From contig OY762937.1 of the NCBI GenBank assembly GCA_963667005.1, positions 1,689,279 to 1,753,278 on the forward strand: 64,000 nucleotides of DNA. Direction: 5' to 3'. Positions 56,087-59,005 of the stretch are shown here, piece by piece (position 1 is the first letter of the stretch; every line of letters starts with the position of its first letter). A program made the position numbers and the translations under genes. This DNA comes from Ignavibacteriaceae bacterium (lineage in GTDB: Bacteria; Bacteroidota; Ignavibacteria; Ignavibacteriales; Ignavibacteriaceae). The notes under the pieces are model-generated. The model saw nothing but the letters and a program-made list of their open reading frames with translations. It was not told where the DNA came from and did no database searches.

Positions 56087-57193
56087 TTGGAAAGCAATTT
56101 AATAAAACTAAACAGGCGCAAAGAGTTTTTCCGCATATATGCGATTCTCTTCGTGTTTGTGACAACTGTTGGCCTCTTATTAGGACTTCAGAACTATTAT
56201 TTTATTGTATCCAGATTCTACACGTTTAGTAACCAAATTGTATTTAATCTGTTATTTTGGTGGTTGTGGCTTCTTTTCTTCCCTATAATCTATTTCATAT
56301 CAAGGAAAATCAAAAAGACCGGTACTTTTTATTATTGGCTGGTATACGCGTTATCCATAATACTCATTATATTTTTGCATCAATTTCTCGGCGCTTGGAT
56401 TCGATATATACAGGATGTGGGCAGGGATTTCGGATTTATTTTCCTTCTGCGTACTATACGTAACCCGCGCATCTGGCTGGACATGGCGATATTTGTCGGT
56501 ATTGTTGTTGCGTTGGATGTCGAAAGATATCAGCAGGAGAAAAAACTGCAGGAGAAGAAGTTTAACGAACTGCAGAAGACCTTGCTTGAGTCCCAGTTGA
56601 ATGCATTAAAAAGCCAGTTACAGCCGCACTTTTTATTTAACACCCTCAATTCAATTACTACTCTTATTCTTGAGAGAGATAAAATTGAAGCCGACAGAAT
56701 GCTTGTATTGCTCAGGGAATACCTTAAACGGACAATGGAAGAAGGATCAAAGAATGAGCATACACTCAAGGAAGAAATGAATTTTATTCGTGACTACATT
56801 GAGATTGAAAAGGTCAGGTTTGGGGATAAACTTCAGTACGAAGAGGCCATTGAAACAGGCACAGAACTAATACCGGTCCCTGTGTTTTTGTTGCAGCCGT
56901 TGATAGAAAACGCGGTATATCATTCAGTGGCCAGAAAAGCTTCCGGCGGCCGGATAAGAGTATCCGGAATTAAAACGGACAGTACTTTGAGACTAGTTGT
57001 GGAAGACGATGGACCAGGCCTACTGCCGGCGGCCAAAAAAGAAGGCGGTATCGGCTTGCAAAATACGAAGATGCGACTTGTACAGCTTTACGGTGATGAT
57101 CAAAGTTTCAGCATGGACTCTTCAGATACAGGCGGTACGCGTATAGAAATTAGTATCCCGGTTGAAAACAATGATTTGGAGAAACCGGAATGA
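56087..57193 (+). CDS. LytS/YehU-type sensor histidine kinase
   Basis: 368 aa. The only in-frame start near the 5' end is TTG, so the start is uncertain. It has about 4-5 N-terminal TM helices, an H-box LQPHFLFNTLNSI, an N-box PLIENAVYHS, G1 VEDDGPGL and G2 GGIGLQNTKMRL. Confidence 0.8.
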   Translation: MESNLIKLNRRKEFFRIYAILFVFVTTVGLLLGLQNYYFIVSRFYTFSNQIVFNLLFWWLWLLFFPIIYFISRKIKKTGTFYYWLVYALSIILIIFLHQFLGAWIRYIQDVGRDFGFIFLLRTIRNPRIWLDMAIFVGIVVALDVERYQQEKKLQEKKFNELQKTLLESQLNALKSQLQPHFLFNTLNSITTLILERDKIEADRMLVLLREYLKRTMEEGSKNEHTLKEEMNFIRDYIEIEKVRFGDKLQYEEAIETGTELIPVPVFLLQPLIENAVYHSVARKASGGRIRVSGIKTDSTLRLVVEDDGPGLLPAAKKEGGIGLQNTKMRLVQLYGDDQSFSMDSSDTGGTRIEISIPVENNDLEKPE

Positions 57194-58215
57194 GACAAAA
57201 ATATTTTGTTCCTTTGTTGTGGATTTTAACAGTTGTCGGAATAATAAGCGGCCTTCAATCATTTTTCTTTATTTACCGGGGCGAAAAAAATATTTCTGAA
57301 TTTCTGCTCTCGCTTTTTATCAGCCTGGTATATAGCTGGTATTATCTTGGATTATCGGCATTTCTATATTATATAATTCCGTTACAGTTTCAGGAAAACT
57401 CTTCAAGATATGTGAAGCTATTTCACCTTCCGGCTTTATTTGTAAATGCTTTGTTGCACCAGTCACTGCTCGGTTTTATGCAAAATACATTATTAGGGGC
57501 TTCGGTTGATTTGAGCCCAAGTGGCATTTTATTAAAGACCACAAATGCCTGGATTGACGGCTTCGTTTATCTGATTTTTTTACTCGTTATGTATTCGCTT
57601 GAGTATAAGAAAAATGTACTTGAGCAGGCTATGAAAATCAGTGAAGCTCAAATGAATCTATCAAAATCGGTTTTGTCGGAAATGAGGAACAGACTGCATC
57701 CTGATTTCTTCTTTTATTCGTTGAATTCAATACAATCTGCAGTGCAACAGGACAAATTCAGAGAAGCCGATAAAATCATGTCCTCGCTCAGTACATTTCT
57801 TCGCGGCACGGTGTACGGAAGCCAGGATGTCGAGGTGGAATTACATGAAGAGTTAAGTTTACTTGAATCCTATCTTGAAACGCGAGCATTGTGTTCGGGC
57901 AGCCAGGGAGTATATTCAATATCGTGTCCGGTAGAACTAAAAGATGCTTTAATATTGAATAGACAGATTTTTTCACTGGCGGAAGATATTTTTCGGGATG
58001 ATTTGAAATTGATGATCAGGAATGACGGGGGCATCCTTGTGACGGAAATGACAGGGAAGGTCGCCTGTGATTATACAGCCACAATTACTCTTGTGAAAAA
58101 GTACTTGCAGGAGTATTACGGCAGCCGGAGTGATGTTGCTGCGGTTGAGAATGAAGGTGTATTAAGAATCGAGATGCGCCTCCCATTGAATTTTAAAAAT
58201 CAGCTGGGTGTTTGA
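57190..58215 (+). CDS. LytS-like kinase paralog with degenerate ATPase domain (putative pseudokinase/co-sensor)
   Basis: 341 aa with ATGA overlap with the upstream kinase. It has the same TM-plus-coiled-coil layout and a retained H-box-like LHPDFFFYSLNSI. No N-box Asn, no intact DxGxG and no GxGL are recognisable in the C-terminal ~120 aa. Confidence 0.65.
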   Translation: MRQKYFVPLLWILTVVGIISGLQSFFFIYRGEKNISEFLLSLFISLVYSWYYLGLSAFLYYIIPLQFQENSSRYVKLFHLPALFVNALLHQSLLGFMQNTLLGASVDLSPSGILLKTTNAWIDGFVYLIFLLVMYSLEYKKNVLEQAMKISEAQMNLSKSVLSEMRNRLHPDFFFYSLNSIQSAVQQDKFREADKIMSSLSTFLRGTVYGSQDVEVELHEELSLLESYLETRALCSGSQGVYSISCPVELKDALILNRQIFSLAEDIFRDDLKLMIRNDGGILVTEMTGKVACDYTATITLVKKYLQEYYGSRSDVAAVENEGVLRIEMRLPLNFKNQLGV

Positions 58216-58216
58216 T

Positions 58217-59005
58217 ATGATTACTAAAATCAGAGCGCTTATAATTGATGATGAAAAACTTGCACGCAACGGAATTGCGATCAGACTTCGCGCATTCCCG
58301 GAAGTTGAAATAATCGGGAAATGTGCATCCGGCAGAGAAGCTATTGGGCAGATTAATACACTCCACCCCGACCTGATCTTTCTTGATATTCAAATGCCGG
58401 AAGTGGATGGCTTTGAGGTTTTGGCAGAGATTGAGAAGGAATTCTTTCCGGTTGTGATATTTGTAACTGCTTTCGACAATTATGCACTGAAAGCTTTTGA
58501 GTGTCATGCACTTGGATATTTACTGAAACCGGTTACCGAAGAGAAATTTAATGAGGCGGTTAAGTCTGCAATCACGGAGGTTCAGAATCGCGATATTGTA
58601 ACCTACGCGAAAAGTTTGGAGAAATTCGTAAAATCCTATGCTGATGAAAAAACTCAAGCCAAGAGTAAAGCAGAATATCTTAACCGGATTATGATTAGAA
58701 ATAAAGAACAAATCTTGCTTGTTCCTGTTTCGGAAATTATATGGATTGAAGCAGCGGGAGATTACGTCTATATTCATACGACTGCACATAAACATCTATG
58801 CAGAGAAAAGCTCATTTCCTTAGAATCAAAACTCAATCCCGATGAATTCGCCCGCGTCCACCGTTCCAGCATCGTTAATATAAACATGATCGAGAGTCTT
58901 CGTCCAAACGACAGAGGAGATTACGAACTCTATCTGAAAAATAAGCAAACACTGAAACTGAGCAGGAACTACTGGAACAGGTTCCAGGAAATCATGGGAT
59001 ATTAA
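58217..59005 (+). CDS. LytTR-family response regulator
   Basis: The receiver domain has IRALIIDDE...DLIFLDIQMPEVDG. The C-terminal LytTR domain has ILLVPVSEIIWIEAAGDYVYIHT...RVHRSSIVN. The ATG at 58217 is preferred over the track's in-frame GTG at 58208. Confidence 0.85.
   Translation: MITKIRALIIDDEKLARNGIAIRLRAFPEVEIIGKCASGREAIGQINTLHPDLIFLDIQMPEVDGFEVLAEIEKEFFPVVIFVTAFDNYALKAFECHALGYLLKPVTEEKFNEAVKSAITEVQNRDIVTYAKSLEKFVKSYADEKTQAKSKAEYLNRIMIRNKEQILLVPVSEIIWIEAAGDYVYIHTTAHKHLCREKLISLESKLNPDEFARVHRSSIVNINMIESLRPNDRGDYELYLKNKQTLKLSRNYWNRFQEIMGY

Follow-up and report, generated by a model that had tools for sequence, protein, structure and literature searches.

The closest described relatives of the system reported here are LytS/LytR, BtsS/BtsR (YehU/YehT) and YpdA/YpdB. 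As in our case, these consist of a kinase with a PF06580 dimerization and histidine phosphotransfer (DHp) domain followed by HATPase_c, and of a regulator with a receiver and a LytTR output. Their sensors are likewise embedded in the membrane with short loops, and in those systems they often control a neighbouring nutrient-related gene. We analysed a 64,000-nucleotide stretch of an Ignavibacteriaceae bacterium (assembly GCA_963667005.1, contig OY762937.1, positions 1,689,279 to 1,753,278 of the forward strand; hereafter the window), which contains a three-gene module of this class encoding two membrane kinases, HK1 and HK2, and a LytTR response regulator, RR. In contrast to the described systems, which have one kinase with a 5TM-Lyt sensor, the module has four transmembrane (TM) helices per sensor, no PF07694 domain, and an apparently dead paralogue (HK2) placed between the kinase and the regulator.

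Kinases with impaired chemistry are not without precedent. AlgZ (FimS), which works with AlgR in Pseudomonas aeruginosa, resembles HK2 in being a LytS-class protein with a degenerate ATP site (no recognisable G1, F or G2 box) and a LytTR regulator; however, both the H-box His and the N-box Asn are still present in it, and it is the sole kinase of its system, whereas HK2 has lost both residues and adjoins an intact kinase (PMC4064291). DivL of Caulobacter and PsmA of Streptomyces also show a histidine-kinase fold that lacks phosphoryl-transfer chemistry and has been repurposed for regulation (PMC4211667, PMC5361649, PMC12963549), but neither is encoded beside a sister kinase, and both belong to classes other than LytS (PMC4211667, PMC12963549). 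DivL, moreover, is a HisKA-class protein with Tyr in place of His which keeps its CA (catalytic and ATP-binding) domain and acts on the unlinked CckA, while HK2 is of the LytS class, is encoded with its sister kinase and no longer has an ATP lid. The mechanism that we propose for HK1 and HK2 has its parallel in RetS-GacS, where one sensor kinase alters the activity of another by binding to it directly through the DHp dimer interface (PMC8498467). Yet these two are hybrid kinases from a different class and are not genetically linked; RetS, besides, does not serve as a dedicated dead paralogue, and the contact between HK1 and HK2 is a proposed one. That truncation can reshape signalling is known from a laboratory-evolved ChrS without its catalytic domain (PMC9491836). 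Our full-text literature searches returned no description of a kinase/pseudokinase pair of the LytS/LytTR class, nor was any pseudo-histidine kinase of this class found in the literature searched. To our knowledge, only a handful of bacterial pseudo-histidine kinases have been recognised at all (DivL, PsmA and RcsD-like proteins).

Architecture of the module

The genes and motifs of the module are as follows.

56087-57193, plus strand: HK1 gene, 368 aa, TTG start
56618-56653, plus strand: HK1 H-box LQPHFLFNTLNS, phospho-acceptor His181 at codon 56627-56629 (from alignments)
56888-56923, plus strand: HK1 N-box LLQPLIENAVYH (from family alignments)
56999-57022, plus strand: HK1 G1 box, VEDDGPGL (from family alignments)
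57044-57067, plus strand: HK1 G2 box, GGIGLQNT (from family alignments)
57190-58215, plus strand: HK2 gene, 341 aa, start overlapping the HK1 stop (ATGA)
57694-57729, plus strand: degenerate H-box of HK2 LHPDFFFYSLNS, Asp172 (codon 57703-57705) at the phospho-His position
57970-58038, plus strand: remnants of the HK2 ATP site, FSLAEDIFRD at the N-box position and IRNDGGIL at the G1 position, with the G2/lid deleted afterwards
58217-59005 (alternative GTG start at 58208), plus strand: RR gene, LytTR response regulator, 262 or 265 aa

HK2 departs from a working kinase at every catalytic motif. In Pfam it matches PF06580 only (50.6 bits), with no HATPase_c match even at E<=1, and no NCBIfam model recognises it. 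The LQPHFLF of HK1 becomes LHPDFFF in HK2, where Asp172 aligns with His181; PHF has turned into PDF and the acceptor is gone. The His that does occur in this motif stands two residues before the acceptor position, where intact kinases commonly carry a His too. According to family alignments, the N-box equivalent is SLAEDIF, in which the Glu is retained and the Asn replaced by Asp; a LILN stretch that BLAST pairing had offered as the equivalent was ruled out by the same alignments. G1 is reduced to RNDGGIL, and the G2/lid segment is deleted.

Nevertheless, the overall build of the protein is preserved: four TM helices, a signalling helix, the DHp domain and a CA-like alpha/beta domain devoid of the lid. 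An AlphaFold2 model of HK2 computed from 45 family members (predicted local distance difference test, pLDDT, 88.6; predicted template modelling score, pTM, 0.58) shows four long helices, the last of which runs unbroken from the membrane to the H-box, followed by a helical hairpin and a small alpha/beta domain with merely four residues at the place expected for the ATP lid. Foldseek comparison of HK2 with the PDB retrieves histidine-kinase DHp-CA structures, with GanS (6swk/6swj) at the top (E 2e-6) and AgrC, DesK, ZraS, DivL and VanS thereafter, and the HK2-family profile matches GanS 6swj at E 4e-20. The kinase domain of GanS, from Geobacillus stearothermophilus, is the best match of the HK2 family in both sequence and structure; it was deposited as a histidine kinase, while HK2 is without catalytic motifs. 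GanS provides, as far as we know, the only solved kinase core of the PF06580 type. Judged from its motifs and its predicted structure, HK2 keeps the kinase fold without the kinase chemistry, and the data support its assignment as a putative pseudo-histidine kinase, without the acceptor His and without the residues for ATP binding, whose fold has been retained under selection.

HK1, in turn, is a complete LytS-class kinase. Pfam assigns it both PF06580 His_kinase (89 bits) and HATPase_c (36.7 bits, cut-off 26.4), and the phospho-His in LQPHFLF is accompanied by N, G1 and G2 boxes (IEN, DDGPG and GIGL). Hydropathy places its four TM helices at approximately 14-32, 51-69, 85-103 and 127-145, with the N-terminus inside and short loops between them; HK1 and HK2 share this layout of four hydrophobic helices, a basic N-terminus, short loops and no sizeable external domain. 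The Pfam scan found no match to the 5TM-5TMR_LYT sensor domain (PF07694) in either protein. In L010, an Ignavibacteriaceae metagenome-assembled genome (MAG) and the closest relative, the HK1 orthologue is 73% identical. RR contains Response_reg (79 bits) and LytTR (99.9 bits), and in the alignment its receiver residues are canonical (DD at 11-12, Asp57 in FLDIQMP, Thr in FVTAF and Lys in LLKP). The nearest NCBIfam models, BtsR and LytR, stay below their cut-offs (186 vs 246 bits and 139 vs 375 bits, respectively). HK1 and RR together thus show every feature of a LytS-class (PF06580) two-component system with LytTR output, but they are not orthologues of LytS, BtsS or YpdA proper, given the missing PF07694, the four TM helices and the RR scores below the equivalog cut-offs.

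The coupling of the three genes can be read directly in the sequence, since the stop of HK1 and the start of HK2 overlap in an ATGA at 57190-57193. RR may begin at the ATG at 58217, one base past the HK2 stop, or at the GTG at 58208, overlapping the last eight bases of HK2. The two kinases align from end to end with 24% identity (E 2e-15). A preliminary description of the locus, made from the DNA letters alone, had proposed two paralogous and translationally coupled membrane kinases, and the reading frames, the ATGA overlap and the full-length alignment agree with it. So do Pfam and the motif alignments, as regards both the complete H, N, G1 and G2 boxes that it reported for the first kinase and the N-box Asn, DxGxG and GxGL that it could not locate in the second. 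The check it suggested for HK2, by profile and structure prediction, yielded no HATPase_c and a CA-like fold with neither a lid nor conserved N/G boxes. Its account of the HK2 TM region and linker as retained holds as well, but the H-box-like motif that it also listed as kept has Asp172 in place of the phospho-accepting His.

Upstream of HK1, at 55850-55960 of the window, there are facing arrays of CGCAAAG/CGCAGAG units, CGCAGAGATCGCAAAGTTCGCAAAG ... CTTTGCGTTCTTTGCG, with no conservation in L010.

Distribution and evolutionary history of HK2

A word-indexed protein search detected merely 3 relatives of HK2, and a search for related loci a single one; the family was recovered by an exhaustive profile search of 1.84 billion representatives, which returned 50 proteins at E<=1e-30, together with whole-genome searches. 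Across the phylum an HK2 profile does not discriminate, because intact kinases score high too, and classification by motif was needed. To this end two-module proteins were split and 198 PF06580 modules were aligned. Of these, 93 possess His, Asn, G1 and G2, 17 have a variant G1, and 80 are without the His; among the last group, 71 lack all three ATP motifs and none has both G1 and G2.

In a FastTree phylogeny of 184 modules, 52 dead kinases form a clade with a local support of 100, which includes both HK2s of the source genome. This clade is sister to 13 intact partners (support 96; joint support 100). Under a site-heterogeneous model (IQ-TREE, LG+C20, 71 rows) the same groups are recovered, with support of 100 for the HK2 clade, 98 for the HK1 clade and 99.9 for both together. 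The sister relationship of the HK1 and HK2 clades implies that a single ancient duplication gave rise to the pair, whose two members have diversified in concert since. The tree requires at least four to six changes between the live and dead states, the remaining dead modules being scattered and mostly located in fused proteins. In these other branches of the family, dead and live modules are joined in a single chain of 700-820 aa, in both orders. By the branching pattern, dead PF06580 modules outside the HK2 clade arose independently, and many of them are fused to a live module.

Nine PF06580 genes are present in the source genome. Two of them belong to a second unit of the same kind (C1:3528597-3531684), in which a partner of 367 aa, with IHPRFLF but without ATP motifs, accompanies an intact kinase and a LytTR regulator. 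In L010, HK2 is 66% identical to that of the window and the synteny is the same, and the HK1-HK2-RR trio recurs in other families of the class (G009, G109, G066 and G052). The order HK1, HK2, RR, with overlapping or near-abutting stops and starts, is found in the window, L010, the second unit, G009, G109, G066, G052, L049, L080 and L082. The HK2 clade amounts to at least 52 clusters at 50% identity from several families of the class, and the HK2 reading frame is full-length and intact in every relative.

Comparison of the window with L010 indicates how HK2 has been maintained. Synonymous sites are saturated between the two (proportion of synonymous differences, pS, 0.63-0.87), so we report the nonsynonymous proportion, pN, against pS and give no dN/dS. 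For the membrane domain pN is 0.26 in HK2 and 0.17 in HK1, for DHp 0.15 and 0.09, and for the CA-like domain of HK2 0.21 against 0.23 for the CA domain of HK1. By this measure all HK2 domains are under purifying selection, the dead CA-like domain being as constrained as the live CA. DHp is the best-conserved part of HK2 (78% identity to L010), and the residues that are invariant in a 45-sequence alignment of the HK2 family (P171, F173, A193, L204 and R205) all fall within it. The WxD motif of TM4 and the H-box position lie exactly 51 residues apart in all HK2s, as they do in all HK1s with a detectable motif.

At the former His position, ten different residues are found among the 52 sequences of the HK2 clade: Gln in 22, Asp in 8, Glu in 6, Lys in 4, Arg in 3 and still others in the rest, but never His. 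At position -2 a His is found in 38 of the 52, vs 70 of 118 intact kinases, alternating with Gln in both. His170 as a displaced phospho-acceptor was rejected on these family statistics, the -2 His being equally variable in intact kinases. Taken together, the gene order and the phylogeny support HK2 as an old conserved clade whose genes are flanked by those of an intact partner kinase and a LytTR regulator. The preliminary view of HK2 as a pseudokinase rather than a simple duplication is borne out by the age of the clade, the signature of purifying selection and the constant position between partner kinase and RR; the role of phospho-acceptor partner that it also considered is not supported, the acceptor His being gone in 52 of 52 clade members.

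Some additional loci broaden the picture of the family. At L055, L064 and L068 (G422, G501 and G505) the gene after the intact kinase encodes a shorter partner (283-318 aa) that retains the membrane and DHp portions and lacks a CA-like domain; two of these short partners are without a recognisable H-box. The HK2 of G009 (P0010) comes from a MAG that carries the NCBI label 'Candidatus Acidiferrales' (Acidobacteriota), at odds with the placement of the genome in the window's class. Thus, the pair may be more widely spread among taxa, unless the labels are inconsistent. Outside the window, the source genome also has a cluster of three further PF06580 kinases (C1:175106-181206, minus strand). It contains a kinase-kinase-LytTR regulator unit in which both kinases have His, Asn and G2, an adjoining gene for a 362-aa secreted protein, and then a kinase-LytTR regulator pair; in these kinases, NN.Q. 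stands in place of DxGxG.

The adjacent esterase gene and a candidate operator

The gene that follows RR was compared across the ten loci that have the trio.

Window, 59209-64000 (runs off the window), plus strand: giant secreted pectin esterase gene, the likely target; CE8 domain from residue 1503 (PF01095, E 3e-11)
Second unit of the source genome, same strand: 1669 aa, PF01095 (E 1e-51) and a type IX secretion system (T9SS) sorting domain
L010, same strand: >1,600 aa, open-ended; esterase by homologous position, not by domain scan
L082 (HK1 41% identical), same strand: 994 aa, Pectinesterase and Por_Secre_tail
G066, G009, G052 and G109, same strand: PF01095 (E 2e-28 to 3e-56)
L049, same strand: GDSL/SGNH esterase (CE12)
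L080, opposite strand: 408 aa, no esterase

A large esterase gene stands behind the trio in nine of the ten loci (L010 counted by position), with HK1 identities down to 41%, and thus trio and esterase make up a conserved four-gene neighbourhood. This gene order, kept across distant relatives, supports a link between RR and the adjacent esterase gene, and provides the giant pectin esterases secreted by Ignavibacteria with a candidate for a dedicated regulator. We know of nothing reported on the regulation of polysaccharide use in this class. The preliminary description had connected the module with pectin genes more widely; its link to the adjacent giant esterase is upheld by gene order, whereas that to the pectin island at 18512-42051 is not. 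The module and the island are some 14 kb apart, with unrelated genes in between, and the TCTAnnCG repeat of the RR-esterase spacer is absent from the island promoters (18363-18511 and 19925-20212), as it is upstream of HK1. Visible control of the whole island by the module was rejected on the grounds of this distance and of the repeat missing from the island promoters.

The repeat in question belongs to a block of the RR-esterase spacer.

59054-59096, strand unspecified: candidate RR site, with two tandem 10-bp repeats CGTGTCTAAA / CGCATCTAAC at 59054-59073

On the minus strand the repeats read CGGTTAG-ATG-CGTTTAG, and a third CGTT core (AACGA, 59092-59096) lies 20 bp beyond them. The counterpart in L010 is CATCTATCCG / CATCTAAACG followed by GACGA with equal spacing, and this is the sole block of the spacer conserved between the window and L010. 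The tandem pattern has a single occurrence in the source genome. We take the repeats to resemble the LytTR 9-mers of AgrA-, ComE- and AlgR-type sites, and regard them as a candidate binding site of RR. The spacer of the second unit carries ACAGTTAGCGTTTAA, and in the lineage of that unit a 23-nt block, CGATACAGTTAGCGTTTAATCTC, is identical between the source genome and L082.

Other features of these intergenic regions and of the genes around the trio were also recorded. In the window, a 19-nt direct repeat (CCGGAAAATTTTCCTTTCT / CCGGAAAATTTATCATTCT, at 59033-59051 and 59177-59195, 144 nt apart) brackets the RR-esterase spacer, and a small GGGTCGCAACAACCC hairpin, conceivably a weak terminator, precedes its first copy. 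The spacers of G009 are far more GC-rich than those of the window. In G052 and G109, a gene for a major facilitator superfamily (MFS) transporter sits directly before HK1 on the same strand (L044:6015-7316 and L042:6003-7070, respectively, both minus). It is of the organic-acid:H+ symporter type, TIGR00895-like but below the cut-off, and recalls the transporter partners of BtsS/BtsR and YpdA/YpdB.

A proposed live/dead kinase pair and its alternatives

On balance we lean towards HK1, HK2 and RR forming a single operon whose two-component system contains one additional subunit that is catalytically dead. The two kinases would be a live/dead pair, probably heteromeric, and would signal via the LytTR regulator to the esterase gene. 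In such a system HK1 would be the sole autophosphorylating enzyme, placing phosphate on His181 from where it would pass to Asp57 of RR. HK2 would assemble with HK1, the simplest arrangement being an asymmetric heterodimer through DHp, and would thereby add a second membrane-embedded input and set the kinase/phosphatase balance of HK1. Phosphorylated RR would then control the giant pectin esterase gene directly downstream. We infer a putative physical contact between HK1 and HK2 indirectly, from the translational coupling in all loci, the co-diversification of the two sister clades, the independent fusions elsewhere in the family, the equal helix register, and the AlphaFold2 model of a natural dead-live fusion (746 residues, with a disordered linker between the modules), whose pTM of 0.60 is weak evidence that the modules pack together. 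We likewise infer the direction of HK2's effect, the site bound by RR and the nature of the signal. Sensors with four TM helices hint at a small molecule or a membrane-level cue, and a signal linked to pectin breakdown products may be speculated upon. Since this old and conserved family has an evident live partner, one regulator and a likely target gene that is conserved too, the role of a dead protomer becomes testable with four proteins and one promoter.

Several observations weigh against the explanation that we prefer. Operon membership and coupling also fit an HK2 that acts on RR, or one that touches HK1 only in the membrane. The fusions support pairing by analogy alone, because the dead modules in them are of independent origin. 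Loss of nucleotide binding by HK2 cannot be proven from sequence, as is illustrated by AlgZ, a LytS-class protein without recognisable G boxes which is still regarded as a kinase (PMC4064291). As to the target, L080 has the trio without an esterase gene behind it. An 8-mer enumeration allowing one mismatch found no motif common to all nine RR-esterase spacers and nothing above shuffled controls, and the repeats of the window and those of the second-unit lineage differ in orientation, which is opposite, and in spacing.

The main rival, which we consider rather unlikely but take seriously, is that HK2 is an accessory of the same pathway that forms its own homodimers instead of a DHp heterodimer with HK1. 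It could be a lateral second membrane sensor, or a scaffold or sink that binds RR via its DHp surface and so buffers or insulates signalling. Conservation, coupling and selection data fit this equally well; DHp is where HK2 is most conserved and where its invariant residues are located, and a pseudokinase that acts by binding a response regulator exists in DivL (PMC4211667). The recurrent covalent fusion of dead and live modules in the family nevertheless points to direct pairing, the helix register of HK2 is identical to that of HK1, and the unit has a single regulator gene. A relay from HK1 to RR through His170, with HK2 as a histidine phosphotransfer protein of the Spo0B/ChpT kind, seems highly improbable to us. 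Spo0B and ChpT have the same design (a DHp with an ATP-blind CA-like fold), and His170 is present in the window HK2, with a -2 His in most of the clade. The canonical His, however, is missing throughout the clade, the alternation of His and Gln at -2 in intact kinases marks an inherited structural residue, and a relay requires an intermediate receiver, which no unit encodes at any locus examined. It is the lack of a conserved His and of this receiver that disfavours the relay.

Two more readings concern what is left of HK2 activity. An active atypical kinase that binds nucleotide without the standard boxes has in its favour that AlgZ, lacking recognisable G1, F and G2 boxes, is still treated as the kinase of AlgR (PMC4064291). 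In HK2, unlike AlgZ, the acceptor His and the N-box Asn are also gone, the lid segment is deleted, and the former His position has been taken by ten amino acids across the clade, which leaves this reading even less credible than the relay. Least probable of all is a functionless relic of tandem duplication. The loss of every catalytic motif would be expected of a relic, but the reading is contradicted by the full-length intact frame in every relative, by pN values which, in each of the three domains, fall far short of the saturated pS, by a clade of such breadth in several families of the class, and by a second paralogous unit in the same genome that retains an HK2 of its own.

Beyond the locus, we tentatively put forward a wider proposal, about which we have more doubts than about the live/dead pair itself. 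PF06580 kinases may include a hitherto undescribed, recurrently evolved subclass of obligate asymmetric pairs of live and dead protomers, encoded in Ignavibacteria by adjacent coupled genes and elsewhere by double-module chains, with the Ignavibacteria pair serving as a dedicated switch for giant T9SS-secreted pectin esterases. That dead-live fusions arose independently elsewhere in the family suggests a general design principle and not a one-off. If obligate live/dead pairs do exist, they would be natural half-of-sites histidine kinases, offering a handle on asymmetry and on cis/trans autophosphorylation in sensor kinases.

One of the fused loci has a composition of its own. At L050:4221-8029, two LytTR regulators flank P0042, a double kinase of 746 aa in which a dead and a live module are fused. 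The upstream regulator has a degenerate receiver (DD changed to DP, the phospho-Asp to Glu and the Thr to Asn). L050 combines a dead kinase module and a dead receiver beside a live pair, and an alpha-amylase/SusG-like gene adjoins.

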